A stretch of DNA of 64,000 nt from an uncultured archaeon. GTDB taxonomy: Archaea; Halobacteriota; Archaeoglobi; Archaeoglobales; Archaeoglobaceae. This document shows, piece after piece, positions 2,706 to 64,000 of the stretch; the first letter of the stretch is position 1; the number at the start of each line of letters is the position of its first letter. The notes under the pieces are model-generated. The model saw only the letters and a list, made by a program, of their open reading frames with translations. It did no database searches and was not told the origin of the DNA. Location of the stretch: NCBI GenBank assembly GCA_964478605.1, contig CAYZIW010000006.1, positions 1,002 through 65,001 of the forward strand. The letters run 5' to 3'. Both the position numbers and the translations under genes were made by a program.

Positions 2706-2729
2706 TGGCGGGGACAAGGTGAATACGTC

Positions 2730-2936: not shown

Positions 2937-3015
2937 GAACTCATTTGGGGATCTTTAAAACCCCCATCGTGTAAAGAAGCATAACCAAACTGTATTTAAG
3001 CCTTGTGCTAGGGAA

Positions 3016-12635: not shown

Positions 12636-12688
12636 CTCATCACCTAAAGTATTTTTATTTTGGAGCAAAAAAGACTTGTGGTGATACG

Positions 12689-16757: not shown

Positions 16758-16769
16758 AATTCTTAACTT

Positions 16770-23423: not shown

Positions 23424-23477
23424 CGGCCTAGCCTAAAAAAACCGGATATAAGCATTTCTAAATTTAAAAATTGACGG

Positions 23478-30741: not shown

Positions 30742-30833
30742 AATCGACCTTGCACTTGCAAATAATAAATTTACTTTCAAATACCTGCAGAAAGGCAGTA
30801 GTGATTCTATTTAGTTATATTTATTATATTTAG

Positions 30834-31295: not shown

Positions 31296-31299
31296 AAAA

Positions 31300-37497: not shown

Positions 37498-37498
37498 A

Positions 37499-39998: not shown

Positions 39999-41726
39999 TT
40001 GAAAAAAGATCTGATCCGAATTCAAGGCGTTTCGAAGAAATTTGATTCTGATTATGTTCTTAAAGACATCAATCTGACGATAAAAGAAGGAGAAGCTTTG
40101 GGAATTATTGGTCTAAGCGGTAGCGGTAAATCTGTCCTCATTCATATAATAAGAGGTTATAAGGAATACAAACCAACTGAAGGTAAGGTGATATACAACG
40201 TAGCTCTGTGCAAAAACTGCTACTGGGTAGATGTTCCAAGCAAGGCAGGTCAAAATTGTCTAAGATGTGATGGAAAGCTGGAAGAATGTGAAGTGGACAT
40301 ATGGGAGCTCGAAGATAAAGAACTTGCCGCTGCAATTAGAAAAAGAGTTGGTATAATGCTTCAAAGAACCTTCGCCCTCTACAGTGAGCAATCTGCTTTA
40401 GAGAACGTTATGGAAGCTATAAGCAGTGCAGGATTAGATGGGTTTAGTTTTGGAGCTACTAGAAGGGTTGAAATGCTAAGTAGAACTGCATACACGAACG
40501 ATGTAATTAACAAGGCCGTAGAATACCTTAAAGCTGTAAATCTTAGCCACAGAATGATGACACCCGCAAGAGATCTCAGTGGTGGTGAAAAACAGAGAGT
40601 GATACTTGCGAGACAGTTAGCGATTGAACCCATAGTACTGCTTGCCGATGAACCAACAGGTACGCTTGATCCTGAAAACACAAGGGTCATATTAAATGCT
40701 CTCAAAAAATACATAAAGGACCAAGGTCGAACGCTTGTTCTTACATCTCACATCCCTCAAATAATCGAAAAACTTTCCGATAGAGTCGTCTGGCTTGACC
40801 ATGGCAAAGTTGTTGCTGAAGGTGATCCTAAAAGCATAATTAAAAAATTCTTAGAACAAGTATCTAAAGAAGAGGTAAAAACTGAAATTGCTGTAGAGCA
40901 GGAGATACTAAAACTTAAAGACGTGAAGAAGTACTACTACTCGGTAAGCAGGGGAGTTGTTAAGGCAGTTGATGGTGTTACGCTTGAGGTAAAAGAGGGA
41001 GAAATATTTGGGATCCTTGGACCAAGTGGTTCTGGAAAAACAACGCTTTCAAGAATAATCGCTGGAATAATTCCTCCAACGAACGGGGAGGTTTACATTA
41101 GAATAGGCGACGATTGGGTAGACATGAGAGCACCAGGACTAACAGGAAAAGGTAGAGCCACACCTTATATAGGTATCTTACATCAAGAATATGGATTGTT
41201 TCCGTTTAGATCTGTACTAGAGAACCTTACAGACTCAATAAGCTTGGATTTTCCAGCAGAGTTTGCAAGAATGAGAGCTATAGATGTTCTTATGGGTGTT
41301 GGATTTCCCAGAGAAGAAGCTGAGAAGATCCTGGAGAGAACTCCAGATGAGTTGAGTGAAGGTCAGAGGCATAGGGTCGCTTTAGCCCAAGTTATGATAA
41401 GAGAACCAAGACTACTACTGCTGGACGAACCTTCCGGCACCATGGACCCAATAACGAAAATAGAAGTTGCAAAGACGCTTAACAAGATAAGAGAAGAAAC
41501 GAAAGCAACGATAGTTGTTATCTCCCACGACATGGAATTCACACGCCTTGTTTGTGATAGGGTAGCTTTAATGCTTGACGGCAAAATTAGACTCATGGGT
41601 TCAGCAAACGAGGTGATAGAATCGCTTGAAAAACTTGAGTTGAAGATTTCAGAAATTGGAGAAATTGTAGTGAGGAAGGAAGAAGAAGGAATGATAAGTA
41701 AAACCGACACAAGTTGTGGTGTTTAA
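39999..41726 (+). CDS. atwA: Methyl-coenzyme M reductase system component A2 (double ABC ATPase)
   Basis: 575 aa. Two ABC cassettes (GLSGSGKS...LSGGEKQR...LLADEPT and GPSGSGKT...LSEGQRHR...LLLDEPS), with the Cys-rich insert CKNCYW...CLRCDG in cassette 1. TTG start follows GGAGGTGG. Confidence 0.8.
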   Translation: MKKDLIRIQGVSKKFDSDYVLKDINLTIKEGEALGIIGLSGSGKSVLIHIIRGYKEYKPTEGKVIYNVALCKNCYWVDVPSKAGQNCLRCDGKLEECEVDIWELEDKELAAAIRKRVGIMLQRTFALYSEQSALENVMEAISSAGLDGFSFGATRRVEMLSRTAYTNDVINKAVEYLKAVNLSHRMMTPARDLSGGEKQRVILARQLAIEPIVLLADEPTGTLDPENTRVILNALKKYIKDQGRTLVLTSHIPQIIEKLSDRVVWLDHGKVVAEGDPKSIIKKFLEQVSKEEVKTEIAVEQEILKLKDVKKYYYSVSRGVVKAVDGVTLEVKEGEIFGILGPSGSGKTTLSRIIAGIIPPTNGEVYIRIGDDWVDMRAPGLTGKGRATPYIGILHQEYGLFPFRSVLENLTDSISLDFPAEFARMRAIDVLMGVGFPREEAEKILERTPDELSEGQRHRVALAQVMIREPRLLLLDEPSGTMDPITKIEVAKTLNKIREETKATIVVISHDMEFTRLVCDRVALMLDGKIRLMGSANEVIESLEKLELKISEIGEIVVRKEEEGMISKTDTSCGV

Positions 41727-42247
41727 GTTTTTTTACTCTTAAGAGCAGCAATTCTCAAAGCATTCTCCAAATCGCTTTTTGGGATTATTGTTACTATTGG
41801 TATCCTCAGTATTTTTTCCAAGATTGGGCTCAATATTGGCGCACAGACTATAGCTTTTGCACCATCTCTCTCAGCTCTAATTGCAGAAACTATAGCTTCA
41901 TCGAAGGAATTCGCTGGATATTCTTTAACGTTTATCTTTCTACCATCGACTTCTAGCTCATAGCTCAAAAGCTGATTCAAAGCTACCCTAGAAGCTACAA
42001 CAGCGATAAAATCCTCTTCAGACTCCAAAAACTTAAATATTGTATTCAGTATTTTCCTTAGAGTGCTCAAATTCGGTTCTCTCTTTGCTGAAATTATTTT
42101 ATAGAGAGTACTTAGGGGAATTCCAGCCTCGATCGCAAAATCCTTTAGGTTCATACCCAATTCCTTTTTGATTACTTCCTCAAGCTTCTCACCGAAGTTT
42201 TCTGCATGGAGGAGGGAGAGTACAACCTCAGCGTAATTCTTTCTCAT
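41723..42247 (-). CDS. HTH (XRE-like) transcriptional regulator with an uncharacterised C-terminal domain
   Basis: 174 aa. Contains LKDFAIEAGIPLSTLYKIISAKREPNLSTLRKI. The 3' end overlaps the atwA stop by 4 nt in convergent orientation. Confidence 0.55.
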   Translation of the reverse strand: MRKNYAEVVLSLLHAENFGEKLEEVIKKELGMNLKDFAIEAGIPLSTLYKIISAKREPNLSTLRKILNTIFKFLESEEDFIAVVASRVALNQLLSYELEVDGRKINVKEYPANSFDEAIVSAIRAERDGAKAIVCAPILSPILEKILRIPIVTIIPKSDLENALRIAALKSKKT

Positions 42248-42347
42248 AATTTCCTCTAAGGATAAAAGTGTTTAAAAAACTTCCTCTTTGTACCAACAAA
42301 ATGTAATCTTAGGAAAGTTTTATAAAGCGATGGTGTAAGCAGAGGAT

Positions 42348-43370
42348 ATGAAGAGGTGGATACTGATTTCTCTAGTAGTTTTTACAGCCTGTTTAGCTTT
42401 CTGCATAAGCGAGGAGCAAAAGGTCAAAGAGATAAGAGTCAGCTACCAGCCAAGCTGGCACCACGCAGCCCTTTTTGTAATAATAGAAAAAGGATGGGAT
42501 GAAAAAATTCTTGGTGCTAAGATAGTAACAAGCCCACCGTTTGCGTCTGGGCCACCACAGATGGAAGCCTTTGCATCAGGGCAGCACGATATTGCCTACG
42601 TTGGTGCAGCTCCGCCTTTGTCACTACTTTCTAGAGGTTTCGATGCTAAGATAGTGGCGGTTGCAAATACTGAAGGTTCAGCAATCATTGCAAGGCAGGA
42701 TACAGTCTACGACGGTCCAAAATCCCTTGAAGGAAAGTCGATAATGACATACCAGCCCGGATCAATTCAACATACAGTTCTTATGAAGTGGCTTAAAGAT
42801 AACAACGTCGATATCTCAAAGGTAGATATAAAATATGGTGGTCCAGCAGAGATAAGAGAAGCATTGAGAGCTAAAGCTGTAGACTTCGGCTTCGCTCCAG
42901 ACCCTACACCTTTGGTCGCAGAGATCGAGGGCTATGGAAAGATCGTAGCAGGATCTTCGGATCTCTCTCCAAATCATCCATGCTGCGTTGTTTTGATGAG
43001 TGGAAAGTTCATCAGAGAGAACGAAGAGCTTGCTGCAAAGTTCTTAGCTCTGCATATAATTGCAAGTGAGTACGCAAAAGATCCGAAAAACAAAGAAGAG
43101 ATGAAGCAAATTTTAATAAAGTGGCTCGGAATTAACGAAGCTGTAGCTGAAAAATTCCCTGGAACAACGAATCTACAAACAGATCCTAGAGACAAAAACT
43201 GGCAGAACGGATTAAACCTGCTCTGCGAAGCACAGTATGACTTGGGGCTGACAAAAGATAGCAAAGGAAATCCGATTAAATTAAAAGCTGAAGAGATCGT
43301 TGATGTTAAGCTCTACGAAAAAGCTTTAAGCATGGTGCCGAAAATAAAAAGTGAGCTGGGGTTGAAATGA
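42348..43370 (+). CDS. ABC transporter substrate-binding protein, NitT/TauT (NMT1/SsuA-like) family
   Basis: 340 aa. N-terminal signal/anchor followed by an SsuA-like pattern (IRVSYQPSWHHAA, DIAYVGAAP). Confidence 0.7.
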   Translation: MKRWILISLVVFTACLAFCISEEQKVKEIRVSYQPSWHHAALFVIIEKGWDEKILGAKIVTSPPFASGPPQMEAFASGQHDIAYVGAAPPLSLLSRGFDAKIVAVANTEGSAIIARQDTVYDGPKSLEGKSIMTYQPGSIQHTVLMKWLKDNNVDISKVDIKYGGPAEIREALRAKAVDFGFAPDPTPLVAEIEGYGKIVAGSSDLSPNHPCCVVLMSGKFIRENEELAAKFLALHIIASEYAKDPKNKEEMKQILIKWLGINEAVAEKFPGTTNLQTDPRDKNWQNGLNLLCEAQYDLGLTKDSKGNPIKLKAEEIVDVKLYEKALSMVPKIKSELGLK

Positions 43371-44149
43371 ACTTGAAAAATTTAGTAATATTTATTTTTT
43401 CGATTGGAAGTTTTTTTGCCGTTTGGGAGATTTATTACTGGGTTTTTATAAATAATCCTTTTATTCTTGCTCCACCTTCTAAGGTTATCCCTACATTTTA
43501 TGATCTGCTCGCTGGTAACATTCAGGGCTTTTATATGCCTCTAGATGCCATATACAGTCTGTATCATTACTTTCTTGGCTTTACAGTGGCTGTTGCAGTT
43601 GGATTTAGTGTGGGGTTAATTGCGGGATGGTACAAAAGGGTAGAAAGGTTCCTATATCCAATAATCGAGCTTATCAGACCGATACCACCGATAGCCTGGA
43701 TACCGATTTCAATACTGCTTCTCAAACTTACTCACACAGCAGCAGCGTTCATAATTTTCATAGGATCCGTATTTCCAATACTTTTAAACACCATCTACGG
43801 TGTGTCTTCCATCGAAAAGAAATACATCGAAGCTGCCTTAACACTTGGTGCAACAAAGACAAAAGATATTTTTATAAAGGTAATAATCCCTGCATCGATG
43901 CCAGCTTTCCTTACAGGTTTAAGAGTTGGCTCAGGAGTTGCTTGGATGTGCGTTGTTGCTGCAGAACTTTTTGGAGTATCCCATTATGGCTTGGGTTACA
44001 AGATCGAGCTTGGCAGACTCTACCACTCCCCAGACATCGTAATATCTTACATGCTCGCTATTGGCATAGTGGGGCTGGTGTTGGATAGAGTTTACAGAAC
44101 TTTGGAGGCATCCATCGTAAAGTGGAGAAGGGGGTATCTAATTGAGTGA
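43367..44149 (+). CDS. ABC transporter permease, NitT/TauT family
   Basis: 260 aa. BPD-transporter EAA loop region EAALTLGATKTKDIFIKVIIPASMP. Confidence 0.8.
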   Translation: MNLKNLVIFIFSIGSFFAVWEIYYWVFINNPFILAPPSKVIPTFYDLLAGNIQGFYMPLDAIYSLYHYFLGFTVAVAVGFSVGLIAGWYKRVERFLYPIIELIRPIPPIAWIPISILLLKLTHTAAAFIIFIGSVFPILLNTIYGVSSIEKKYIEAALTLGATKTKDIFIKVIIPASMPAFLTGLRVGSGVAWMCVVAAELFGVSHYGLGYKIELGRLYHSPDIVISYMLAIGIVGLVLDRVYRTLEASIVKWRRGYLIE

Positions 44150-44882
44150 GAACTTTCTTACGATAGTAAACCTGAGCAAGTGGTATGGAAACAGAAGTAT
44201 TCACGTACTGGATAATATAAACCTCGATGTTTTCAGAGGTGAATTTGTAAGTCTTCTTGGCCCAAGTGGATGTGGTAAAACCACACTACTCAGAATCATT
44301 GCCGGGCTTGAAAAGCAAGATAGTGGAGAGGTTAGACTAAAAGGAGAGCAGATAGTTGGGCCAGGACAGGATAGAGTGATGGTATTCCAAGATTATGCTC
44401 TTTTCCCCTGGCGTACTGTACTAGGAAATATCCTCTTCGGACTGGAGGTTAGAAAGATAAAGAAAGATGAAGCTTTAAAAATAGCGCAGAATTATATAAA
44501 ACTCGTAAATCTTGAGGGATTCGAGAATTCATACCCTCACGAGCTCTCTGGGGGTATGAAACAAAGAGTAGCTTTGGCAAGAGCATTAGTTTGTGATCCT
44601 GAAATACTCCTGATGGATGAACCGCTCGCTGCGCTCGATGCACAAACCAGAAACATGATGCAGAGTGAACTTGTAAGGATCTGGAGCGCAACGAAAAAAA
44701 CGATAATATATGTAACACACAGCATTGAGGAGGCAGTTTATCTCTCAGATAGAGTCGTCATTTTTACGCCAAGGCCAGCAAAGGTCAAAAAAATCGTGAA
44801 TGTGAACATTCCAAGACCAAGAGACAGGTTTTCAAGAGAATTTGTGGAATTAAGGGCAAAGATTTACGAACAACTTCACTAA
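44142..44882 (+). CDS. ABC transporter ATPase, NitT/TauT family
   Basis: 246 aa. Contains GPSGCGKTT, VFQDYALFPW, LSGGMKQR and LLMDEP. TTG start. Confidence 0.85.
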   Translation: MSENFLTIVNLSKWYGNRSIHVLDNINLDVFRGEFVSLLGPSGCGKTTLLRIIAGLEKQDSGEVRLKGEQIVGPGQDRVMVFQDYALFPWRTVLGNILFGLEVRKIKKDEALKIAQNYIKLVNLEGFENSYPHELSGGMKQRVALARALVCDPEILLMDEPLAALDAQTRNMMQSELVRIWSATKKTIIYVTHSIEEAVYLSDRVVIFTPRPAKVKKIVNVNIPRPRDRFSREFVELRAKIYEQLH

Positions 44883-44911
44883 AAATTTTAAGCCCAAGGC
44901 GAAATTTAGTT

Positions 44912-46297
44912 ATGCGCCCGCTAAAATACTGCACAGCACTTGTAGTGGATATGACTCATGGAGGCGTAGTTATATGTGAGGAGTTGTTGAAAAGAGGCTG
45001 TAAAGTACTTGCATTCGATAATCACAGAACTCTGAAGTTTTATGATGTAGAAAAGCTCAAAAGATGGGGTGTCGAAGTTTACGATGATGAAAATAAGATA
45101 AAAATCGATGATGTTGATGTTATAATTGTACAACATGCAGATCCAAACTTAAATCTTTTTAATAAAGCTATTGAACTTGGAATTCCAATAATAAGCCATG
45201 CAAGAGCTGCGGGGATAATCATTTCCGAATTAAAGGGTTCAACCAATGTCATCGAGATTACAGGAACTAACGGAAAAACTACCGTCGCAAACATGCTTGC
45301 GAAAATTCTCTGCGATGCAAACTTTAACGTCTTGATCCATGACAGCTTAAAAACAAGAATAATTTCGAACTCAGAAGAAAAAACCCTCGCCGAAGGTCTC
45401 AGCATAACACCTGCAAACACGATTAAAGCTTTCAGGATGGCTGAAAATTACGATTTTGACTTTGCGATCTTTGAAATATCCCTCGGTGGAACGGGAGCTG
45501 CCGATGTTGGAATTGTAACTGGTATCTACGAAAATTACAGAGCATCCTTCTTCAGGAACGCGTTCAACAGCAAACTCCAGATGGTCTACAACATGAAAGA
45601 TGGGATCCTTATCCTTAACGGAGATAACAAGATTTCAAGAAGGTTTTTTAATGTATTCTTCGGCACTTCAAACATTTACGGAATTAAAGAGGGAAGAGAG
45701 CTTAAAGTTAAGAGATTAGGCGAAAAAGTAGATTGTGTTGCCGATGCTTTGAAAACATGCAGCGGAAAAGATTTGAGCTGTGAATTCTCTTTCAAACTTG
45801 ATAAAACGCTTTTTGGAAGTTTTCAAATACTAAACGCACTCGGAGCTATTGCAGGTGCTTTATCTGTAGACTTAGAACCAGAAAATGCTGTAAAATCTAT
45901 AGAAAAATTCAAAGGAGTGAAGGGGAGGGCGATAGCAGAATACAAAAAGATGGGCGTAGTGGTTGATTGTTCAAACAGAGGTATAAATGTTCCAGCGATA
46001 GTCTCAGCTTTAGATGAAGCGATAGCCCTGAAAAAACAGGGACGCTTTGATGGGGTGATAGTTGCGATATCTGGATCAGAAAGGGCTGCATGTGAAATAA
46101 TAGACGTTAATAGGTTATCAAACGAATTAAAAAGCAGAGAAATAGATTTCGTTGCTCTTTCAGGAGTTTTAGGGAAAAAACTTGCACAGCAGGGTGTTAG
46201 AGGGGAGATTTTTGAGAAGATAGTTGAAAAAGAACTTGAAAAACTTTCAGCAAGCTTTAATAATCCTATTGTCCTCATCTTCAGCAATGAAGCTTAA
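44912..46297 (+). CDS. cfbE: Coenzyme F430 synthetase (Mur-ligase family)
   Basis: 461 aa. Mur ligase P-loop ITGTNGKTT. Directly upstream of cfbD and cfbB. Confidence 0.75.
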   Translation: MRPLKYCTALVVDMTHGGVVICEELLKRGCKVLAFDNHRTLKFYDVEKLKRWGVEVYDDENKIKIDDVDVIIVQHADPNLNLFNKAIELGIPIISHARAAGIIISELKGSTNVIEITGTNGKTTVANMLAKILCDANFNVLIHDSLKTRIISNSEEKTLAEGLSITPANTIKAFRMAENYDFDFAIFEISLGGTGAADVGIVTGIYENYRASFFRNAFNSKLQMVYNMKDGILILNGDNKISRRFFNVFFGTSNIYGIKEGRELKVKRLGEKVDCVADALKTCSGKDLSCEFSFKLDKTLFGSFQILNALGAIAGALSVDLEPENAVKSIEKFKGVKGRAIAEYKKMGVVVDCSNRGINVPAIVSALDEAIALKKQGRFDGVIVAISGSERAACEIIDVNRLSNELKSREIDFVALSGVLGKKLAQQGVRGEIFEKIVEKELEKLSASFNNPIVLIFSNEA

Positions 46298-47369
46298 AAG
46301 TCTGCCCTATGCAGTTCATCCACGACCTAATCCAATAGCAGCGGCACTTTATACGCTCAGAGACCTGAACTGCAGACATATAATACTCCACGGCCCAGCA
46401 GGTTGCAACTTCAGAGCTTTAAGACTTCTCGAAAAAGATGGGGTGAAGATGTTTACGACTTCCCTAAGCGATCTCGACGTAATATTGGGTGGAAAAAGGA
46501 AGCTGATAGAGGTACTTGAAGCCGTATACAGCGACTTCAAGCCAGAGCTAATAGGAGTCGTCGGTACTTGCTGCACAACTATAATCGGCGAAGACATTGA
46601 AAGCGAGATCTCTGAGGTAAAGATACCTTCAAAAATAATTGCTGTGAACATCTCCGGCTGTGGAGATAACACGGAAGGAGCTATAAGAGTGCTTGAAGCT
46701 GCCCTTAAGCTTGGAATAATAGACAAAGATGAATTCAGGAGGCAGGTTGAGATGCTGAGATTTGCAACGAAAGTTGAGAAGGAGTTCGGTGTAGCAATTC
46801 CTGGCTATTTACCGCCATCTCCTGGAGATGATGCAAACTTGGTTGCAAAAGAGATTGTTGAAAGGCTTAAAGAGGGGATAGTTGTTATACTGAATGCCAA
46901 AAAAGAAACCGCTTACCTCTACTCAGATGTGATCCTCGCTGTAAACGAGGCAAAGAAGAAAGCTGGTGGAGAATTTAAAGTTATCGCAAACTTGCTAGAA
47001 AACAAAGGACTTCCGAAAGTTAGAGAAGATGCAAGGAACATACTAAAAGAGCTAAGAGAGAATGAAATTGAAATCGAAAAGTTTAGCGGCTCTCTTGATG
47101 AATACGCTTACTCTGCTCAAATTTCGTTGAAGATTGCTGAAGATTTAGGCTTCTCTTCTGTTTTAGTCCTTGGAATCCCTCAAGCCATAAAGCCTGAAAA
47201 GTTCAATTATTCAGTTGGCGTGTCTTCAGGGGAAAGAACAATGACTCGCCTGCGGGATTTAGGATACTCAAGAGTGGTTAACGAGGAGTCTGCACATGTA
47301 AATGTCCTTGGAAGTAAGAAAATCGTAAGATCCCAGCTTGGAGATGCAATAAGAAGAGTGGTGACATGA
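46287..47369 (+). CDS. cfbD: Ni-sirohydrochlorin a,c-diamide reductive cyclase, NifD/NflD-like subunit
   Basis: About 360 aa. Nitrogenase component-1-like fold signature ILHGPAGCNF...GTCCTT. Start taken at MKLKSLPY (46287), an 11-nt overlap with cfbE. Confidence 0.7.
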   Translation: MKLKSLPYAVHPRPNPIAAALYTLRDLNCRHIILHGPAGCNFRALRLLEKDGVKMFTTSLSDLDVILGGKRKLIEVLEAVYSDFKPELIGVVGTCCTTIIGEDIESEISEVKIPSKIIAVNISGCGDNTEGAIRVLEAALKLGIIDKDEFRRQVEMLRFATKVEKEFGVAIPGYLPPSPGDDANLVAKEIVERLKEGIVVILNAKKETAYLYSDVILAVNEAKKKAGGEFKVIANLLENKGLPKVREDARNILKELRENEIEIEKFSGSLDEYAYSAQISLKIAEDLGFSSVLVLGIPQAIKPEKFNYSVGVSSGERTMTRLRDLGYSRVVNEESAHVNVLGSKKIVRSQLGDAIRRVVT

Positions 47370-48727: not shown

Positions 48728-48794
48728 CTCTTTAAAAATTAAACGTTTTTGATTTCTCGTAAAAACTTTTAAATCGTTTTCAAAAATTCGATCA

Positions 48795-49739: not shown

Positions 49740-49838
49740 ACCTGTTCTTTTTATAGTTCAGCATCAGCTGCTAGACCTTTTCTAAAAATAAACATCATGA
49801 TTGATAGCGCAATATTTAAATAATTTGAGTAAACAACA

Positions 49839-51197: not shown

Positions 51198-51224
51198 AAT
51201 ATTTTTATTTTTTATGGTGATGAA

Positions 51225-53167: not shown

Positions 53168-53176
53168 GGTGATGAT

Positions 53177-55896: not shown

Positions 55897-57097
55897 AATC
55901 CTGAAAAATCTTTTTATGGAAGATGAAAAACCCCTTGCCCTGCAAGATGTAAAGGTCGTGGAAATCTGCGGTGAAAACTTTGCAGCTGCAATAGCTGGAT
56001 CTTTACTTGCTGAAGTCGGTGCAAAAGTTACCAGAATTGAATTTGACGATGAAGCGAAAGATTTAACCCCCTTTGGTGTTAAAGTTGAAGATCTCGGCAT
56101 CCCTTACCTTGTTGAAACGCGAAACAAGGAGATAATCAGATACGACGAAAAAGTCAGAGAAATTGTATCTTCAGCAGATATAGTAATAGATGGTATGCCT
56201 CCCGGCTATCTTGAAGATCTAGGAATGGGCTATAGACAGCTATCTGAACTCAATCCAAGAATTATTTATGTTGCCATATCCCCTTTTGGACATTTTACCT
56301 CAAAAGCTAAGGAATTCAAAAACGTACCGGATTCAGATCTGACAGCTCAAGCTTACAACGGATATCCTACATTGATAGGTAACCCCTACCTCACAGAAAA
56401 GCATTCTTATCCTTTAAAAGCCGGAATTTGGGCAGCTTGGACGATGGCAGGTGTTAATGCTGCAGTTGCAGCCCTTATAGCACTTATTGAGAGATCGAAA
56501 AGTGGCAAGGGGCAGTTTATAGACATTGCAACCAACGATGCACTCGTAGTTATCAATGCGTTTCCAATAATAATTGGTTTTCTGTTCAACAAACCGAGGG
56601 GTAGGTTCGGTACTGTGGATTATATACTTTACCCGTTCGGCTATTACAGGGTCAAAGATGGATACATTGCACTTGCAACACCAACAGATGCAGATTTCAG
56701 AGCTTTGTTGAAGATAATAAAGAGATGGGACCTAGAACCAGACTGGAAGTTCTCCTTAGATAGGATCTCAGATGACCTCGAAAGAATAAAAATTTTGGAT
56801 GAGGAGCTGAACAAAACTCTGAGAAAGTTTACAACTGAAGAACTCATCAGAGCTGCAAGAAGGGCGAGAAGAGTAAAAATGCTGGGCAAACTCGTAGGAA
56901 GATTTTTAGGAGAGCCTGTGATAGTCAAACTTAACACGCTGAAAGAGGTGCTCGAAGAGGAGCACTGGAGAACAAGAAAGGCTTTCTTAACTGTAAGAGT
57001 CAATGAAAAAGAAATTTTAATCCCCAATGCTCCAATAAAAATGTCCGAGACTCCGGCTAGGATTATTAAAATTCTGAACAGAGAGGTTAAAACCTAA
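55883..57097 (+). CDS. Family III CoA-transferase, intact paralogue
   Basis: About 404 aa. Contains LQDVKVVEICGENFAAAIAGSLLAEVGAKVTRIE, ADIVIDGMPPGYLEDLGMGY and ISPFGHF. Start taken at MSRDEIL (55883). Confidence 0.8.
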   Translation: MSRDEILKNLFMEDEKPLALQDVKVVEICGENFAAAIAGSLLAEVGAKVTRIEFDDEAKDLTPFGVKVEDLGIPYLVETRNKEIIRYDEKVREIVSSADIVIDGMPPGYLEDLGMGYRQLSELNPRIIYVAISPFGHFTSKAKEFKNVPDSDLTAQAYNGYPTLIGNPYLTEKHSYPLKAGIWAAWTMAGVNAAVAALIALIERSKSGKGQFIDIATNDALVVINAFPIIIGFLFNKPRGRFGTVDYILYPFGYYRVKDGYIALATPTDADFRALLKIIKRWDLEPDWKFSLDRISDDLERIKILDEELNKTLRKFTTEELIRAARRARRVKMLGKLVGRFLGEPVIVKLNTLKEVLEEEHWRTRKAFLTVRVNEKEILIPNAPIKMSETPARIIKILNREVKT

Positions 57098-57114
57098 AGT
57101 CCAGATGAAATTAG

Positions 57115-57140
57115 AAAAAACGTTTTTATTTTCACTTTTT
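57115..57140 (+). terminator. Candidate terminator after the CoA-transferase genes
   Basis: Perfect palindrome AAAAACGTTTTT (57116-57127) followed by the oligo-T tracts ATTTTCACTTTTT. Confidence 0.35.
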
Positions 57141-57451
57141 GACCCGTTCGATGTTTCTAAGTTAGTGCTAATAATATAAAAAAAATTTATTAATTCTTAT
57201 ATATTTATATTTTTGAAACGAATTAAATCTACGACAAAGATAATTGAAGCGATCTAAGAAGACTGAATTTTCAAACCTTTCGAGAAAGACCAATTTAAAC
57301 GAGGAAAAGAAGTAAAAGGTATAGCAGTGTAGTCAGAAAAAGCAAATGAAGTAGTTAGGAGATTTAAGATAATATGTTCTTTTACCTAAATACAGCTTAT
57401 CAACACATTTTGAGACCAAAAGTTTATTAACCAGTTTTCTAAAAATTAAAC

Positions 57452-57847
57452 ATGGCAATAGTTGTTGCTCTGGATAAGAGATCGCTAAGAACTGAGAGGG
57501 TTTTGGAGTTTGCACTTAAAGAGGCAAAGCTTAGAAGTGAAAAGTTGCTCTTTGTGCATTCTTTGTTTGGAAAAGAAAAGACGAAAGCTGAAGAAGTGAT
57601 CGAGGGTGAGAAACTGCTTGAATGGGCAGCTGAGCAGGCTAAGAAAGAAGGTATCGAATTTGAAAAACATTTACTTATAAGGGGCAAAGAACCGGCTGAA
57701 GACGTAATAGAATTCGCAAACGATGTTGCAGCGAGCATGATAATTATAGGTGTCAGAAAAAGGCGTCCGACTGGAAAAGTACTTTTTGGGAGTGTTGCAC
57801 AAGAGATAATACTAAACGCAGCCCAGCCAGTTGTATGTATAAAATAG
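57452..57847 (+). CDS. Universal stress protein (UspA family)
   Basis: 131 aa. Contains IVVALD, MIIIGVRKR and GSVAQEIILNAAQPVVCIK. Confidence 0.8.
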   Translation: MAIVVALDKRSLRTERVLEFALKEAKLRSEKLLFVHSLFGKEKTKAEEVIEGEKLLEWAAEQAKKEGIEFEKHLLIRGKEPAEDVIEFANDVAASMIIIGVRKRRPTGKVLFGSVAQEIILNAAQPVVCIK

Positions 57848-57986
57848 TTCACTAACAATCTGGTGTTATTAGAAACTGTTGATTAAAATCAAAAATGTTA
57901 TCGGAAATTCTCAAAATAAGACTAAGGTGAGCTTAAAAGAATACGTTTTTTCTATAAGCCTGTATGGAGCGTAGTAAAATGGTAAG

Positions 57987-57996
57987 AAATATATAC
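57987..57996 (+). promoter_or_regulatory. Candidate TATA box of the mcr operon
   Basis: AAATATATAC lies about 54 nt upstream of the mcrB ATG. Strong RBS GGAGGTGA at 58035-58042. Confidence 0.35.
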
Positions 57997-58049
57997 CTCT
58001 CCACGTTGCTTTTAATTGGAGTAAGTTTGGATTCGGAGGTGAAGAGATT

Positions 58050-59381
58050 ATGAAGTATAAGGACAAAATAGACCTTTATGACGACAAAGGAAAGTTGGTT
58101 GAATCCGATGTGCCCCTTGAGGCTGTTAGCCCATTGCTGAACCCAGCGATCGAAGAGATTATAAAAATTATACGCAGGTCTGTTGCAGTAAACTTGGCAG
58201 GAATCCAGAAGGCTTTGGAGACCGGTGCTGTAGGTGGCGAAAGATGCATTATCCCTGGAAAATCGTTGAAACTTGATATTGTTGCTAACGCAGGTGCGAT
58301 TGCGGATAGGATAAAGAAGACCTTGGCTGTGACAAAAGATGATGACACAGTGGTGCAGCTCATCGACGGTGGTAAAAACCTGCTTGTACAAGTTCCAACG
58401 ATAAGAATATTAAAGGCTGTAGAATATACAGCTCCGATAACTGCTGTGGCTGCTGCCGTGACTGAAGCTATAATCGACACGTTCAAAGTAAACATGTTTG
58501 ACGCCCCAATGGTTAAAGCGGCTGTTTGGGGAAGGTATCCGCAGTCTATGGACTTGATGGGTGCAAACGTGCAGTCCCTACTTTCAGTTCCACAGCAGAA
58601 TGAAGGTCTAGGATACACTTTAAGAAATGTCCCAGTCTCATACATATCAACGATCACAAGAAGAAACGCTATGAATGCTGCTTCGCTTTCTTCGATATTT
58701 GAACAGACCGCCATGATCGAAATGGGAGATGCAGTTGGTTCCTTTGAAAGACTGCATCTTCTTGGCCTAGCTTATCAGGGCCTCAACGCAAACAACCTCG
58801 TATATGATCTTGTAAAGGAAAATGGAAAGAATGGTTCCGTAGGTACGGTAGTTGCAAGCCTTGTTGAGAGGGCAGTTGAAGATAAGGTTATCAAACCGAA
58901 TGGAAAAGGCCCATCTGGATATGTAACGTACACTACAAGTGATATAGCACTCTGGAACGCTTACGCTGCAGCTGGCTTCCTAGCAGCCGCCATGGTAAAC
59001 TGTGGTGCACAGAGAGCGATGCAGAGCATATCTGCAGTTACAGTATACTACAACGATCTGCTTGAGAGACAGACCGGATTACCATCCGTCGACTTTGGTA
59101 GAGCTCTCGGTTTGGGTGTAGAATTCTCGTTCTTCAGCCACTCCATATACGGTGGTGGAAGCCCAGTCATCTTCCACGGCAACCACATAGTCACAAGACA
59201 CAGCAAAGGATTTGTAGCTCCAGCTATCGCAGCTGCGATCGCTCTTGATGCTGGTACAGTCTATTATAGCCCAGACAGAATAGCTGGAATAATAGGACAA
59301 GTGTTCAGCACAATACCCGTGCTCAGAGAGCCGCTAATACATGTAGCGAAGGCTGCGGGGCAGATAAAGGACAAGGTGTAA
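58050..59381 (+). CDS. mcrB: Methyl-coenzyme M reductase beta subunit
   Basis: 443 aa. First gene of a BDCGA-ordered operon. Contains YDDKGKLVE, and C-terminal FSFFSHSIYGGGSPVIFHGNHIVTRHSKGF, typical of McrB. Confidence 0.9.
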   Translation: MKYKDKIDLYDDKGKLVESDVPLEAVSPLLNPAIEEIIKIIRRSVAVNLAGIQKALETGAVGGERCIIPGKSLKLDIVANAGAIADRIKKTLAVTKDDDTVVQLIDGGKNLLVQVPTIRILKAVEYTAPITAVAAAVTEAIIDTFKVNMFDAPMVKAAVWGRYPQSMDLMGANVQSLLSVPQQNEGLGYTLRNVPVSYISTITRRNAMNAASLSSIFEQTAMIEMGDAVGSFERLHLLGLAYQGLNANNLVYDLVKENGKNGSVGTVVASLVERAVEDKVIKPNGKGPSGYVTYTTSDIALWNAYAAAGFLAAAMVNCGAQRAMQSISAVTVYYNDLLERQTGLPSVDFGRALGLGVEFSFFSHSIYGGGSPVIFHGNHIVTRHSKGFVAPAIAAAIALDAGTVYYSPDRIAGIIGQVFSTIPVLREPLIHVAKAAGQIKDKV

Positions 59382-59385
59382 ATCG

Positions 59386-59772
59386 ATGCTCCCCTCCCTC
59401 AGGGAAGAGATTGAGATATTTCCCTACAGGATAATGGGAGCTAAAACTGTTGAAAGCTTACTTAATGAGATCTCAAATCTTGAAGGAATAGAGGGAGTAT
59501 TCATCCACGGTCCAAGTGTAAAAAGTGATGTTAGAGAGAAGATAGTGGTTAAAGGCGAAGAAGCAGAGCTTCGAGTCGCACCTAGCAGGTTGATAATCAG
59601 AGTTAAAGATGCCGACTTGGTGATGGACAAATTAAAAGCCATCTGTGATCAAATACTTACATACGGCTATTCAATAAGGACAGGCAAGTTCACAAGAGAC
59701 CAGCCAACGCTGCATGATTACAAAGTTCTGTACATAATGCAGCTTAGAGAATCCAGAGAGGATGAAGAATGA
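59386..59772 (+). CDS. mcrD: Methyl-coenzyme M reductase operon protein D
   Basis: 128 aa. Contains IEIFPYRIMGAKTVESLLNEI, IHGP and GKFTRDQPTLHDY, plus position in the operon. Confidence 0.8.
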   Translation: MLPSLREEIEIFPYRIMGAKTVESLLNEISNLEGIEGVFIHGPSVKSDVREKIVVKGEEAELRVAPSRLIIRVKDADLVMDKLKAICDQILTYGYSIRTGKFTRDQPTLHDYKVLYIMQLRESREDEE

Positions 59773-60389
59773 AAATCGGTAGAGAAACACAGTTCGTCGA
59801 CTGTAGAGAAGCAATCGGGATCGGTTTAGGTGGGGGTTTAGCTCAGAGAGGAACGGTCTCTGTAGGCTACTGTGGAAAAAGGCCGTCTGATGTGATCGTT
59901 GTCTCGATGTCTCCATCGACAAGACACGTAACAAAGCCAGTGTGTGAGATAACAGCAGGTTTAAGAAGAGAAGGCATAAATGCGAGTGTTCTTGTACTTA
60001 ACGCAGGCTCGAGTGCACCTCCGGGCGCTTCAGCATCGAAGGGAGGTTACGGATCACACTTTGGGTTAAAAATTGAAGAAATAGATAGAATAGCAAAACA
60101 TAAGCTCTGTGTTATCCACCTAGGTAATGTAAAACATCACGTCGTTGCTAAGGCCAAGGCTATACTTAGATATGTACCGATAAAAGGCGTTATCGTTTGT
60201 CAGTGCCCTCTGACATTTGAAGATCTAGTTAAAGCTGGCGTAAAAACGAGAGTCGCAAGTCCCGAAAATCCTGAAACCCTGGGGGAGGTAGTAGAGATAG
60301 TAACAGATGTTGTACGCGGGCAGAATTGCCCGCCGGAGAAAATAGATGAGATTTGTGAGAAAGTGAAGAGGCATATTAATTGGGGGTGA
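59769..60389 (+). CDS. mcrC: Methyl-coenzyme M reductase operon protein C
   Basis: 206 aa. Position between mcrD and mcrG. Contains IGLGGGLAQRG and VVSMSPSTRHVTKPVCEIT. Confidence 0.8.
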   Translation: MKIGRETQFVDCREAIGIGLGGGLAQRGTVSVGYCGKRPSDVIVVSMSPSTRHVTKPVCEITAGLRREGINASVLVLNAGSSAPPGASASKGGYGSHFGLKIEEIDRIAKHKLCVIHLGNVKHHVVAKAKAILRYVPIKGVIVCQCPLTFEDLVKAGVKTRVASPENPETLGEVVEIVTDVVRGQNCPPEKIDEICEKVKRHINWG

Positions 60390-60395
60390 AAATGT

Positions 60396-61190
60396 ATGGC
60401 TGATATAAAAGTTAAGGGAGGGAAGTACAAGCCCGCATATCCCGGGCAAACGATCGTAGCTGAAAATAGAAGGAAATACCTAGATCCGAACTACGAGCTT
60501 AGAAAGCTTAGATCGATTTCCGACGAAGACGTAGTCAGATTGCTCGGCCATAGAGTTCCGGGCGAAGCGTACAAATCCGTTCATCCACCACTTGAAGAGC
60601 TTGGCGAACCGCCATGCCCGATTAGAGAGTTAGTCGAACCTACACCTGGTGCTAAGGCGGGAGATAGAATCAGATACATTCAGTTCACAGACTCAGTCTA
60701 CTTCGCTCCACTGGCACCGTACGTAAGAAGTTGGATGGCTTTCTGGAGATACAGAGGTGTTGATCCTGGCACCCTCTCTGGCAGAGCTCCACTTGAAATG
60801 AGAGAGCGCGATTTAGAGCTTGTTGCAAAAGAGTTGCTTGAAACTGAGGTGTTTGATCCAGCAAGGGTTGGAGTCAGAGGAGCCACAGTACATGGCCACT
60901 CGCTAAGATTGGATGAGAATGGACTGATGTTCGATGCTCTCAGAAGATACGTATTCGACAAAGAGAAGGGAGAGGTCGTATACGTAAAGGACCAGGTCGG
61001 AGTACCTCTTGAGACCCCAGTGAGAGTTGGAAAACCACTGCCGGAGGAGGAGTTAAAGAAGTTAACGACGATCTATAGAGTGGATGGTGTATCAACGAGG
61101 AACGATCCTGAACTGCTCAACTGGGTAAAGAGGATTCACTTGCTTAGAACTTATGCCGGATTTAAGTTGAATATGGCTGAAAATATGTGA
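60396..61190 (+). CDS. mcrG: Methyl-coenzyme M reductase gamma subunit
   Basis: 264 aa. Contains [59 protein letters not shown] and TTIYRVDG. Confidence 0.95.
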
Positions 61191-61200
61191 GGTGGTTTAG

Positions 61201-62868
61201 ATGGCTGATAAGAAGTTGTTTATTGATGCTTTGAAGAGGAAATTTAAGGAGGAGCCAACAGATAAATATACAAAGTTCTACATCTACGATGGTTGGAAGC
61301 AGTCTGCAAGAAAGAGAGAATTCGTAGAATGGGCACAGAAGATTGCCAAAGAAAGGGGAATTCCTGCATATAATCCTGAAATGCATCTCGGTGGAATCCC
61401 CGTTGGGCAGAGAGTTTTGATGCCCTACAAGATCTCAGGCACTGATGTATACTGCGAAGGCGATGATCTACATTATATAAACAACGCTGCAATGCAGCAG
61501 GCTTGGGATGATATAAGAAGGACCGTCATCGTTGGTCTAGATGCTCCGCATGCATTGCTTGAAAAGAGGTTGGGCAAAGAAGTAACTCCCGAAACGATAA
61601 ACGAGTACCTTGAGGTTCTCAACCATGCGTTGCCAGGTGGTGCAGTAGTTCAGGAGCACATGGTTGAAATTCACCCAGCACTTGTTGCAGATTCCTATGT
61701 TAAGGTCTTCACAGGCAACGATGAGCTTGCAGACCAGATAGATAAGAGGTTCCTTATAGATATAAACAAACAATTCCCACCGGAGCAGGCTGAAGCTTTA
61801 AAGAAGGCCATTGGCAAATCACTATATCAAGTAACAAAGGTTCCGATAATCGTTGGCAGAGCAGCAGATGGTGGTACTATTTCAAGATGGTCTGCGATGC
61901 AGATAAGCATGGCGATGATCGCATCCTACAAGCTGATGGCTGGTGAAGCTGCAATCGCTGAGTTCGCGTTTGCAGCAAAGCATGCCGAAGTAATTCAGAT
62001 GGCAACCCTTACACCCTGGAGAAGGGCGAGAGGCCCGAATGAACCTGGTGGATTGCCGTTTGGCTACCTAGCAGATATAGTCCAGACAAACAGAAAATAC
62101 CCGGATGACCCCGTTAAAGTCGCCCTTGAAACGCTTGCCATTGGTTCAGTGATCTTTGACCAGCTCTGGTTTGGAATTTACATGTCTGGTGGAGTGGGAT
62201 TCACTCAGTATGCAACGGCCGTTTACACAGATGACATCCTCGACGACTTCTGCTACTACATTGCAGACTATGTAAAGAAGAAATATGGTGGATTCGCAAA
62301 GGCTCCAAGGACGATGGATACCGTGCTTGATGTCGCAACCGAAGCAACCCTCTATGGACTTGAGCAGTACGAAAGATTCCCAGCACTTATGGAGACCCAC
62401 TTTGGTGGATCTCAGAGAGCATCAGTCCTTGCAGCAGCATCTGGCGTTGGAGCAGCTATTGCTACTGGAGATGCTCAAGCTGGCGTCAACGGCTGGTATC
62501 TATCAATGATCTTGCATAAGGAGCACATGGGCAGACTTGGCTTCTACGGCTACGATGCCCAAGATCAGATGGGTGCATCAAACAGCTTCTCATACAGAAG
62601 CGACGAGGGCTTGCCACTGGAGCTTAGAGGACCGAACTATCCAAACTACGCGATGAACGTTGGCCACACTGGCGAATATGCGGGCATAGTTGCTGGTGCT
62701 CACGCAGCTTGCAGGCATGCATGGTGCGTGAATCCAATAGTGAAGGTTGCATTTGCAGACCCATCGCTGAAGTTCGACTGGACAGAGCCAAGAAAGATGA
62801 TTGCAAAGGGTGCACTGAGAGAATTCATGCCAGACGGCGAGAGAGATGCGGTAATTCCGCCACACTAA
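61201..62868 (+). CDS. mcrA: Methyl-coenzyme M reductase alpha subunit (canonical methane type)
   Basis: 555 aa. Contains AAKHAEV...[64 protein letters not shown] and [15 protein letters not shown]. Confidence 0.95.
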
Positions 62869-62887
62869 ATTTTTTACACTTTTTTAA

Positions 62888-63352
62888 ATGGAATCGTCTC
62901 AACTTCTTGAAGTCCTGAAAAGCGAAGCTAGACAAATATCCATCCAAGATTTTGCAATTGCTCGTCGAGAACTTTTTGAAGATTTTAAGTACGTTCCAGA
63001 ACCTTACAAAAGCTATTGGATCAAAAAAATGCTTGAATATTTCCTTTTAAATCTTAAAGAGCTCATTAACACGTACAACGTGTGTCCAGAAGATCTGGAT
63101 GACAAAAAAGTTGGAGAATTTATAAAAAAAATAAATGAAAATTCGAAGCTCGTTGCATTCAAAAAAATTTCTCTCGTAGTGTTACCCTATCTCACATTTA
63201 TAGCTAAAAAACCCATTCACCCCCCAGAAATGATTTTTCTAGGAGGAAAAGAGATTAAAAAGGCCGAAAACAAATACTTTTGTCCTGTAAAAAACAAACA
63301 AATCAATCTCTATTCATTCTGCGAATTTTGCGTTTGTGAAGCGTACGAATAA
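62888..63352 (+). CDS. Small Cys-rich protein, DUF2115/UPF0305-like (methanogen-associated family)
   Basis: 154 aa, starting 19 nt after mcrA on the same strand. Contains KKPIHPPEMIFLGG and YFCPVKNKQ...FCEFCVC, which I recall as UPF0305-like. Family assignment is from memory. Confidence 0.45.
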   Translation: MESSQLLEVLKSEARQISIQDFAIARRELFEDFKYVPEPYKSYWIKKMLEYFLLNLKELINTYNVCPEDLDDKKVGEFIKKINENSKLVAFKKISLVVLPYLTFIAKKPIHPPEMIFLGGKEIKKAENKYFCPVKNKQINLYSFCEFCVCEAYE

Positions 63353-64000
63353 AACCTATCTACGATAGCTACTAACTCTTCATCGCTTAAACCCTCAACA
63401 CCTCTTGAGGGCTCGTTTTTTAGTATTTTTCTGGCAATATCTTTAAAAATCTTTGAATCTTCTTCTTTCATCTGGAAGACTGTCATCCCTTTAACTTCAC
63501 ACTCTCTAAGACTCTTAATGTATGGAATTTCTCCGACGACCTTTGATCCAATAGTGTTCGCAAAAAAATCTACCAGCTTCCTTTCAAGCTCAAAGTTGAA
63601 TTTTGAGTTCAGTATAATTCCTCCTACTGGAGCATTTGCACTCTTTGCTCCTTTGCATATGTTGTTTGCAGCATAAATTGACAGATATTCGCCCGATGTT
63701 ACTATATAAACTTCACTGTTCCTCTTCATTGGCACAACAAAACCCCCACAAACAACATCTCCAGGAACGTCGTAGATAACTATATCTAGATCGTCAAGGA
63801 TTCGAAGCTTGTCCATATATTCAAAAGCTAAGAGTAACCCTCTACCAGCACAACCGACACCTGGCTCTGGACCACCAACTTCAGCACAGATTATGTCAGC
63901 ATAGCCTCTGACAAAACAACTTTTTAAGTCCTCCCCATTTCTTATAGCATCTAGAATAGGTTTGACTCTTCTGTTACCTGTTAGAAGTAAAGTGCTGTCC
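63310..64000 (-). CDS. cfbC: NifH-like ATPase, Ni-sirohydrochlorin a,c-diamide reductive cyclase component (partial, N-terminus off the window)
   Basis: Manual extension upstream of the track's internal Met reads STLLLTGNRRVKPILDAIRNGEDL...CAEVGGPEPGVGCAGRGLLLAFEYMDKL, the NifH switch/cluster motif. The frame is open to the window edge. Confidence 0.8.
   Translation of the reverse strand, partial: DSTLLLTGNRRVKPILDAIRNGEDLKSCFVRGYADIICAEVGGPEPGVGCAGRGLLLAFEYMDKLRILDDLDIVIYDVPGDVVCGGFVVPMKRNSEVYIVTSGEYLSIYAANNICKGAKSANAPVGGIILNSKFNFELERKLVDFFANTIGSKVVGEIPYIKSLRECEVKGMTVFQMKEEDSKIFKDIARKILKNEPSRGVEGLSDEELVAIVDRFYSYASQTQNSQNE

Follow-up and report, generated by a model that had tools for sequence, protein, structure and literature searches.

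Mcr, coenzyme F430 and Mcr-activation genes form a syntenic block in Mcr-bearing Archaeoglobaceae, probably an ancient acquisition from a Korarchaeia-like donor

We analyzed a 64-kb window (64,000 nucleotides of contig CAYZIW010000006.1, assembly GCA_964478605.1), a core chromosomal piece from a hyperthermophile-like archaeon of ~40% guanine plus cytosine (GC), in which genes for methyl-coenzyme M reductase (Mcr), coenzyme F430 biosynthesis and Mcr activation are gathered between atwA and cfbC. Of the five genes for F430 biosynthesis, the block contains four (cfbB, C, D and E). Its features are listed below, with scores given as NCBIfam bits versus the curated cut-off unless otherwise stated.

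39999-41726, plus strand: atwA, Mcr activation component A2, a double ATP-binding cassette (ABC) ATPase (TIGR03269, 747 vs 517)
41723-42247, minus strand: XRE-type helix-turn-helix (HTH) regulator of 174 amino acids (aa) (Pfam HTH_3, E = 1.8e-7)
42348-44882, plus strand: SsuA/NitT/TauT-family ABC importer comprising binding protein, permease and ATPase (SsuA_fam, 134 vs 163.5; SaoP-/SaoA-like)
44912-46297, plus strand: cfbE, coenzyme F430 synthase, Mur-ligase-like (NF033197, 239 vs 250)
46224-47369, plus strand: cfbD, NifD-like catalytic subunit (TIGR03282, 394 vs 268)
47366-48727, plus strand: cfbB, Ni-sirohydrochlorin a,c-diamide synthase, CbiA/CobB family (NF033195, 492 vs 560; cobB model, 474 vs 261)
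48795-49739, plus strand: AIR-synthase-related (AIRS), marker-2-like gene (TIGR03267, 313 vs 365; Pfam AIRS and AIRS_C)
49839-54609, plus strand: Liv-type ABC importer
54606-57097, plus strand: two family III CoA-transferases, the first frame-split (54606-55896), the second at 55799-57097
57452-57847, plus strand: universal stress protein (Usp)
58050-62868, plus strand: mcrBDCGA, a canonical methane-type methyl-coenzyme M reductase operon
62888-63352, plus strand: DUF2115 protein (Pfam PF09888, E = 6e-37), its 3' end overlapping cfbC by 43 nt
63310 to past 64000, minus strand: cfbC, NifH-like ATP-dependent reductase of the reductive cyclase, its N terminus past the window end

A preliminary description of this DNA had named atwA, cfbE-D-B, a marker-2 candidate, mcrBDCGA, the DUF2115 gene, cfbC, the importers, the CoA-transferases and the Usp gene, and all of these are present where it placed them; it overlooked the HTH_3 regulator at 41723-42247 and the splitting of one CoA-transferase. 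Its statement that cfbA is missing from the window also holds, no CbiX/cfbA family match being found among the scanned open reading frames (ORFs) of the window or of the 4.6 kb past it. The Archaeoglobi-like host that it proposed agrees with the names that depositors gave to near-identical proteins: those sharing 90% identity or more with L10e, Orc1, AtwA, AIRS and McrA of the window are called Archaeoglobales or Archaeoglobaceae archaeon, and by these names the host looks like a member of the Archaeoglobaceae.

In the mcr operon, mcrD and mcrC lie between mcrB and mcrG, and the B-D-C-G-A genes overlap or are spaced by no more than 10 bp. McrA (995 vs 768), McrB (639 vs 516), McrG (398 vs 172), McrC (258 vs 213.5), CfbD and AtwA all score past their curated cut-offs, AtwA reaching the equivalog score of TIGR03269 over model positions 1-521 of 530. 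For CfbB, CfbC, CfbE, McrD and the marker-2-like protein, the expected family scores best yet stays under its cut-off. McrD reaches 90.5 vs 100, with the Pfam MCR_D family matching an identical protein, and the full-length 271-aa copy of CfbC, found on a Logan contig from SRR7754706 (L001) whose genes are identical to the window's, has F430_CfbC as its best model at 284 vs 402. Korarchaeal homologues fall under these cut-offs too (CfbC 301 vs 402, CfbA 113 vs 120, marker-2 299). The identity of CfbB is proposed from its context and family membership. The AIRS protein misses the curated score of methanogenesis marker protein 2, with TIGR03267 as its best family ahead of the sll0787-type AIR-synthase-like family (230 vs 321), and would best be called marker-2-like.

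Two gene models call for comment. The cfbD coordinates are those of the maximal ORF, and the real start probably lies ~90 nt downstream, as the profile match begins at residue 32. The first CoA-transferase occupies two reading frames, 54606-54869 (87 aa, profile positions 1-31) and 54805-55896 (from position ~60), and represents either a genuine pseudogene or an assembly frameshift error. The window contains atwA and mcrC, as does the McrC/Mmp7/Mmp17/Mmp3/A2 activation complex of classical methanogens (PMC12176620). The mmp genes are absent from the 64 kb and do not adjoin the window's atwA.

The same gene order is found in a sister lineage of Mcr-bearing Archaeoglobaceae (loci L003-L010, L013-L015 and L093), where atwA is followed by the HTH gene on the opposite strand, the SsuA-type ABC importer, cfbE-D-B, the AIRS gene, mcrBDCGA, the DUF2115 gene and cfbC, again convergent with mcr. 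The two lineages are well diverged. McrA is 94-96% identical between them and further proteins 63-74% (AtwA 70%, Cfb proteins 63-73%, CfbE 63%), and the sister loci have ~48% GC versus ~40% in the window. The DUF2115 gene keeps both its position and its overlap with cfbC at 49-50% identity. Outside the block, the surroundings differ. Upstream of atwA, the window has a major facilitator superfamily (MFS) gene followed by qmoC-like, hdrA-like and mvh genes, whereas the sister lineage has mmp3, a fused mmp6/5, mmp15, mmp17 and mmp7 and then mtrEDCBA, so that its atwA, like that of a Korarchaeon described below, is divergent from mmp7-17-15-6/5-3. Downstream of cfbC, the window's lineage has marC and then mtd, and the sister lineage a thiolase and unrelated genes. 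Because the order is kept inside while both flanks differ, the conserved syntenic unit of these two lineages extends exactly from atwA to cfbC.

Within this unit, the window departs from the sister lineage in two respects. Its AIRS gene is inverted relative to both the sister lineage and the Korarchaeon, and 8.3 kb encoding the Liv-type importer, CoA-transferases and Usp (49839-57847) separate AIRS from mcrB. This segment is missing from 12 sister loci (L003-L007, L009, L010, L013-L015, L093 and, in part, L008), where mcrB follows AIRS by ~215 bp. A second metagenome-assembled genome (MAG) of the window's own lineage carries it, as judged from the adjacent accession numbers of its AIRS and Liv binding proteins, so the segment is a feature of the lineage rather than an assembly artefact, and it appears to be a lineage-specific insertion. 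We found no convincing flanking repeats in a search of 48600-58200, and an attempt to place the right edge of the insertion by aligning the region upstream of mcrB with the sister and Korarchaeal sequences was dropped, the sequences being too diverged. The preliminary description had treated both importers as interruptions of the cluster. That view does not hold for the NitT/TauT-type importer, which is a conserved cluster member because it lies beside mcr or atwA in Korarchaeia, in Methanomethylicia and in a Bathyarchaeota MAG.

Two further observations concern the sister loci. In L093, the 325-bp spacer between the divergent mmp3 and atwA genes (9643-9967) is GC-rich with hairpin-like segments such as CCCCGCCCTTCAGAGTAGGGGG, and it could be a structured RNA or regulatory element; the atwA leader in the window differs from it in being AT-rich and 131 bp long. 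Downstream of the sister block in L004, a Lactamase_B gene (16565-17604) with a GC content at third codon positions (GC3) of 0.84, versus ~0.51 in its neighbors, adjoins a tRNA-Leu(CAG) and may be a recent insertion there.

The mcr loci reported for Candidatus (Ca.) Methanomixophus/WYZ-LMO MAGs, Ca. Methanoglobus nevadensis and Ca. M. hypatiae share with the window the mcrBDCGA operon, the block order, a Korarchaeal/TACK affinity of Mcr and a hot-spring setting (PMC7380581, PMC10945360). The window differs from them in belonging to a more distant lineage, in its 8.3-kb insert and inverted AIRS gene and in lacking mmp7-17-15-6/5-3 and mtr beside atwA. In the literature searched, we found no mention of a linkage of cfb or atwA to mcr in Mcr-encoding Archaeoglobaceae.

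Gathering of Mcr, F430 and activation genes on this scale is real and unusual, as had been supposed from the sequence. With the window's proteins we searched 80 McrA-centered loci from GTDB species representatives, taking up to 10 kb per side; 77 are from outside the Archaeoglobaceae, and in 49 of these 77 the sequence on either side of mcrA exceeds 5 kb. As far as the fetched flanks reach, mcr has cfbB, D and E for neighbors in a single one of the 77 loci (L092), cfbC or a DUF2115 gene in none, and atwA in nine (Methanomethylicia-type, a Nezhaarchaeota MAG and Methanomassiliicoccales-type MAGs). Seven loci, from Thermoproteota or unclassified archaea, have a marker-2-like AIRS gene next to mcr, atwA or cfb. 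The cfb genes of M. jannaschii are dispersed. The unusual character of the arrangement is qualified by Methanosarcina barkeri and M. acetivorans, in which cbiX-S and cfbBCDE are clustered on the chromosome (PMC13474568). The likeness lies in the grouping of F430 genes; the Methanosarcina clusters contain cbiX-S, and the review mentions no linkage to mcr or atwA (PMC13474568), whereas the window has no cfbA, keeps cfbC apart from cfbD and embeds the set in an mcr neighborhood.

The exception, L092, comes from a MAG labeled 'Methanobacteriota archaeon ELA229'. Its cfbB-cfbD-cfbE genes (323-4388) lie ~2.4 kb upstream of mcrBDCGA and encode proteins 27-41% identical to those of the window, which looks like an independent cfb-mcr linkage outside both Archaeoglobaceae and Korarchaeia.

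Outside the Archaeoglobaceae, the McrA of the window is 82-83% identical to that of Korarchaeia, 73-74% to that of Methanomethylicia and at most 71% to that of euryarchaeal methanogens among the fetched loci. A 78-kb Korarchaeal contig (Ga0078972_1001766) from metagenome 3300005573, where the sister lineage is also present, carries two methanogenesis sub-clusters. The first contains an A2-like gene, mcrBDCGA, cfbA, four other genes and an AIRS gene convergent with cfbB-cfbD-cfbE; the second, ~27 kb further, contains ycaO-tfuA-cfbC, mmp7-17-15-6/5-3 divergent from atwA and then an SsuA-type ABC importer. Identities between window and Korarchaeon are 76/45/76/76/83% for McrB/D/C/G/A, 57% for AtwA, 68/65/67% for the importer binding protein, permease and ATPase, 57/66/61% for CfbE/D/B, 63% for AIRS and 56% for CfbC, whose Korarchaeal gene has ycaO-tfuA and mmp7 as neighbors. 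Each Korarchaeal counterpart that we found is also the best match seen outside the Archaeoglobaceae, with CfbC measured against the Korarchaeon alone. In a database-wide search with AtwA, the Korarchaeal protein tops the non-Archaeoglobaceae matches at 731 bits, the next scoring 660. No Korarchaeal counterpart of the DUF2115 protein or the HTH regulator was found in the contig stretches read.

Resemblance extends to gene order. The mcrBDCGA order, cfbE-D-B convergent with AIRS, and an atwA gene that is divergent from the mmp genes and precedes the importer are common to the Korarchaeon and the Archaeoglobaceae. In the Korarchaeal cluster, unlike the window, cfbA comes after mcrA, ycaO-tfuA adjoins cfbC, a DtxR-like gene comes after the importer and mcrB has a second, divergent A2-like ATPase gene upstream of it; the genes moreover fall into two sub-clusters ~27 kb apart. 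Close homologues of the Korarchaeal McrA and AtwA are named 'Candidatus Korarchaeum sp.' at NCBI, and we infer, after PMC7380581, that the contig belongs to Ca. Methanodesulfokores washburnensis.

A first tblastn search had returned a 'Korarchaeal AtwA' of 32% identity. We rejected it as a divergent A2-like paralogue beside mcrB, the true AtwA lying elsewhere on the contig at 57%. Such a second A2-like double ABC ATPase, 30-32% identical to AtwA, lies beside mcr both on the Korarchaeal contig (L011, 5025-6707) and in a Nezhaarchaeota MAG (L022, 7762-9468), with canonical AtwA elsewhere on the same contigs (57% and 49% identity, respectively).

Published work derives the Mcr of Archaeoglobi laterally from Thermoproteota (PMC7380581, PMC9635834, PMC10945360), and the legend of Extended Data Fig. 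9 in PMC12176620 places Archaeoglobi McrC, Mmp7 and CfbD in a Proteoarchaeota group as horizontal acquisitions. Our identities and hit rankings agree with these trees (PMC9635834, PMC12176620) and support the view that the cluster genes (Mcr, Cfb, AtwA and importer) depart from the placement of their host. The alternative of vertical inheritance would make the cluster a relic of a methanogenic Archaeoglobi ancestor, lost in the sulfate reducers, with the Korarchaeal likeness due to reverse transfer or slow evolution. It would account for a block that is common to two diverged lineages and host-like in composition throughout, and for an HTH regulator with Archaeoglobus affinity. MCR-encoding MAGs cluster separately from mcr-less Archaeoglobi, and loss from a methanogenic ancestor has been named as an alternative (PMC10945360); Mtr, moreover, has been argued to be vertically inherited (PMC7380581). 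It is difficult to reconcile, however, with the fall in McrA identity from 83% in Korarchaeia to 73-74% in Methanomethylicia and at most 71% in euryarchaeal methanogens, with a Korarchaeal nearest neighbor for AtwA, CfbE/D/B, AIRS and the importer as well, and with published trees nesting Archaeoglobi Mcr, McrC, Mmp7 and CfbD in the Thermoproteota/Proteoarchaeota group (PMC9635834, PMC12176620). We consider vertical inheritance improbable.

The comparison with the Korarchaeon also bears on how the genes came together. Genes acquired separately, or partly resident, could have been joined within the Archaeoglobaceae by selection for co-expression. The local orders in common with the Korarchaeon would be an unlikely outcome of such one-at-a-time assembly, and we rate this explanation a shade less probable again than vertical inheritance, even though the Archaeoglobaceae order merges the two Korarchaeal sub-clusters, the regulator is resident-type by appearance, the DUF2115-mcr linkage occurs in Archaeoglobaceae only among the lineages sampled, and the AIRS inversion and 8.3-kb insertion point to ongoing rearrangement. 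The occurrence of both organisms in metagenome 3300005573 might raise the suspicion of an assembly or binning chimera, in which a Thermoproteota mcr fragment was joined to an Archaeoglobaceae contig. Parts of the arrangement recur in independent assemblies, among them the Logan contig from SRR7754706 and NCBI MAG contigs (144 kb and 43 kb) whose gene numbers match. Composition does not change at the junctions, and the cluster proteins share no more than 56-83% identity with their Korarchaeal counterparts; we give a chimera next to no credence.

The GC and GC3 values of the non-mcr cluster genes equal those of their flanks. GC3 is 0.372 from atwA to AIRS and 0.376 in the 8.3-kb insert, versus 0.360 ± 0.030 in the flanking genes, and it rises to 0.43-0.47 in mcrB, mcrG and mcrA. 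In the sister lineage of 48% GC, the cluster genes follow their own genome (GC3 ~0.51) and mcrB/G/A are again above their neighbors, so that mcrABG show the rise in each of two lineages whose genomes lie 8 points of GC apart. In Ca. Methanoglobus hypatiae, mcr is among the top 2% of expressed genes (PMC10945360). Since the shift recurs in the sister lineage and accompanies very high expression, we read it as an expression effect rather than a foreign signature.

The preliminary description had suggested that such consolidation might mark a unit that is either mobilizable or under common regulation. A recent or still mobilizable genomic island would explain the tight gathering of functions, the sharp synteny boundaries at atwA and cfbC with flanks that differ between the two lineages, and the GC3 of mcrABG (0.43-0.47 vs a flank mean of 0.36). 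The remaining cluster genes have flank-like GC and GC3, the 48%-GC sister shows the mcr rise as well, which is in keeping with very high expression (PMC10945360), and the same order is kept in a second lineage. No integrase, transposase or recombinase is among the Pfam and NCBIfam matches of the scanned ORFs in the window, L001 and L093. No tRNA gene adjoins the block either, the window having tRNAs at 1104-1175 and 15785-15857 only and L001 and L093 none. Flanking repeats were likewise lacking in a search that covered the surroundings of the 8.3-kb insert (48600-58200) and not the outer block borders. The block moreover lies on a core chromosomal contig with an rRNA operon, orc1/cdc6 and reverse gyrase. 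An island is thus very unlikely, and the evidence favors an acquisition that is old and ameliorated and would predate the split of both lineages. The reading offered earlier is therefore supported in part: the nearest non-Archaeoglobaceae matches of the cluster genes are Korarchaeal and depart from the placement of the host, but a present-day mobilizable island is not supported.

The importer beside atwA in the block deserves separate consideration. Its binding protein misses the SsuA family score (TIGR01728, 134 vs 163.5) and, among PDB sequences, weakly resembles SsuA and a 'nitrate transport protein'. An importer of this type adjoins atwA in the Korarchaeon, and in four Methanomethylicia-type loci and one Bathyarchaeota MAG the pair of importer and regulator immediately precedes mcrB. 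In a neighbor-joining tree of the concatenated importer proteins, the window and sister lineage group with the Korarchaeon at 100% bootstrap, with an A. fulgidus-like copy outside. We had considered a resident, Archaeoglobus-type importer, given that its regulator is closest to the A. fulgidus-like copy, and dropped the idea as the Korarchaeal importer is closer. A three-way link of importer, AIRS and mcr in Methanolobus was rejected as well, the AIRS gene there belonging to a different family (30% identical over 123 aa). In methanogens, ssuABC has been described as a coenzyme M (CoM) transporter; the M. acetivorans genes are induced on CoM starvation, transport CoM and confer sensitivity to 2-bromoethanesulfonate (PMC12068725, PMC10658910). 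By analogy, the importer of the block most plausibly supplies coenzyme M.

The regulator belongs to a widespread archaeal HTH family of ~173 aa with members in an A. fulgidus-like genome (58% identity), Methanolobus, Methanomassiliicoccales and anaerobic methanotrophic (ANME-2) archaea. Its homologues adjoin an NMT1_2-type ABC importer in all contexts examined, including a non-methanogen-like genome. An AlphaFold model (predicted local distance difference test score, pLDDT, 85) consists of an N-terminal HTH and a small C-terminal alpha/beta domain; a fold search with it gave no PDB match at E <= 0.001 and a weak likeness to HTH plus Rossmann-like repressors and to the PrpR N-domain. The regulator gene is divergent from the importer and shares the 4 nt of its 3' end with atwA. 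The start of cfbE lies 29 bp past the importer ATPase gene, compared with 55 bp in the sister lineage, and all genes of 42348-57097 are co-directional with gaps of at most 100 bp, which makes co-transcription of importer and cfbEDB plausible.

As to common regulation, the second possibility raised in the preliminary description, we found no operator motif shared across the cluster: two candidates failed significance, and the upstream regions are too diverged to footprint. The palindrome AAAAACGTTTTT, present in three cluster intergenic regions, has 2 window matches versus 0.7 expected, a number equaled in 15 of 100 shuffles, and was dropped. The sequence WTAGGAAW / TTAGGAAA between regulator and importer is under-represented window-wide and occurs once only in cluster intergenic DNA, and we discarded it as a cluster-wide operator. 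Lying just upstream of a TATA-like box in three Archaeoglobaceae, it is probably a promoter sequence resembling the TFB recognition element (BRE).

Taken together, these data lead us to favor, with good though not full confidence, an ancient lateral acquisition of the block from a Korarchaeia-like donor over an active mobile element. The neighborhood would be a chromosomal 'Mcr toolkit' of a methanogenic Archaeoglobaceae lineage, made up of mcrBGA, the assembly and activation genes mcrC, mcrD and atwA, cfbB-E, the importer with its own XRE-type regulator, and the marker-2-like AIRS and DUF2115 genes. The ancestor of the Mcr-bearing Archaeoglobaceae would have received it, by a single lateral transfer or a small number of them, from a Korarchaeia-like member of the Thermoproteota in which the genes were already clustered, and the block would then have taken on the composition of its host and been rearranged. 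In the window's lineage, the AIRS gene would have been inverted and 8.3 kb inserted upstream of mcrB, and MFS and Qmo/Hdr/Mvh genes would have taken the place that mmp7-17-15-6/5-3 and mtr occupy beside atwA in the sister lineage. Clustering probably persists through the co-dependence and partial co-transcription of the parts.

Several points weigh against this interpretation. The ~27-kb split of the Korarchaeal sub-clusters means that a single transfer event is not demonstrated, the DUF2115 gene lacks a Korarchaeal counterpart in the stretches read, and the AtwA margin is modest (57% vs 48-54% for other lineages). In a neighbor-joining tree, the regulator groups with its A. fulgidus-like homologue (58% identity) at 90% bootstrap; either the block is mosaic at the regulator or the donor's regulator would be unsampled. 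The direction of transfer relies on published trees that nest the Archaeoglobi sequences inside Thermoproteota, and our own phylogenetic support consists of pairwise identity, hit ranking and two small neighbor-joining trees rather than densely sampled maximum-likelihood analysis. The host taxonomy is based on depositor-given names. As for the importer, its substrate is deduced, with the binding protein under the SsuA cut-off and orthology to M. acetivorans ssuABC not established, and a close homologue lies beside BioY in an A. fulgidus-like, presumably non-methanogenic genome.

The rest of the window encodes a beta-oxidation set with EtfBA, ribosomal protein L10e, Cdc48, Orc1/Cdc6, reverse gyrase and an mvhADG-hdrA/qmo-like cluster. 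Genes for a HycI-like protease, mvhA, mvhG, mvhD, hdrA, and HdrA2/QmoB-like and QmoC-like proteins (30834-38617, minus strand) lie upstream of the Mcr block, separated from it by one MFS gene only, and resemble the Mvh-Qmo-Hdr complex proposed for Ca. Methanoglobus hypatiae. Counting mtd just past cfbC on L001, methanogenesis-related genes span >37 kb in the window's lineage. A gene for a LarC-family nickel insertion protein (12623-13843; Pfam Ni_insertion, E = 3e-105) lies at a distance of ~26 kb from those for F430 biosynthesis.

At the opposite end of the window lies the following feature.

1-2705, minus strand: 16S-tRNA-23S operon (~61% GC)

Such rRNA in a ~40% GC genome and the reverse gyrase gene (27547-30780) are both compatible with a hyperthermophilic lifestyle. 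Just upstream of orc1/cdc6, a 544-aa protein (19633-21267) matches Radical_SAM weakly (Pfam E = 3e-7) and nothing in NCBIfam at E <= 1e-10. After orc1/cdc6, a 950-bp stretch (22529-23477; region 21308-23478) of ~37% GC contains no ORF of at least 100 aa and is a candidate replication origin, in which we found one 14-nt inverted pair only and no origin recognition box (ORB)-type repeats.

Mcr-bearing Archaeoglobaceae, and the derivation of their Mcr, McrC, Mmp7 and CfbD from Thermoproteota, were already known. Our analysis adds that the F430 genes, A2, a probable CoM importer and a marker-2-like protein travel with mcr, with local orders shared between Korarchaeia and Archaeoglobaceae, and that Methanomethylicia and a Bathyarchaeota MAG likewise have the importer and the AIRS gene next to mcr. 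The literature searched held no mention of this cluster-level Korarchaeal synteny or of the linkage of importer or AIRS to mcr in Thermoproteota, which makes for a modest addition to the known picture. It yields a short candidate list of accessory genes for expressing active Mcr in foreign hosts, and it singles out DUF2115 and the marker-2-like AIRS protein, both uncharacterized, as subjects for functional study. More speculatively, the block, combined with the mmp genes that adjoin it in both the Korarchaeon and the sister lineage, may have been a portable installation kit for Mcr, sufficient for a non-methanogenic Archaeoglobaceae ancestor and with the importer, AIRS and DUF2115 as required accessories. 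We regard this last idea as possible though doubtful; if true, it would provide a concrete and short parts list for heterologous active Mcr.

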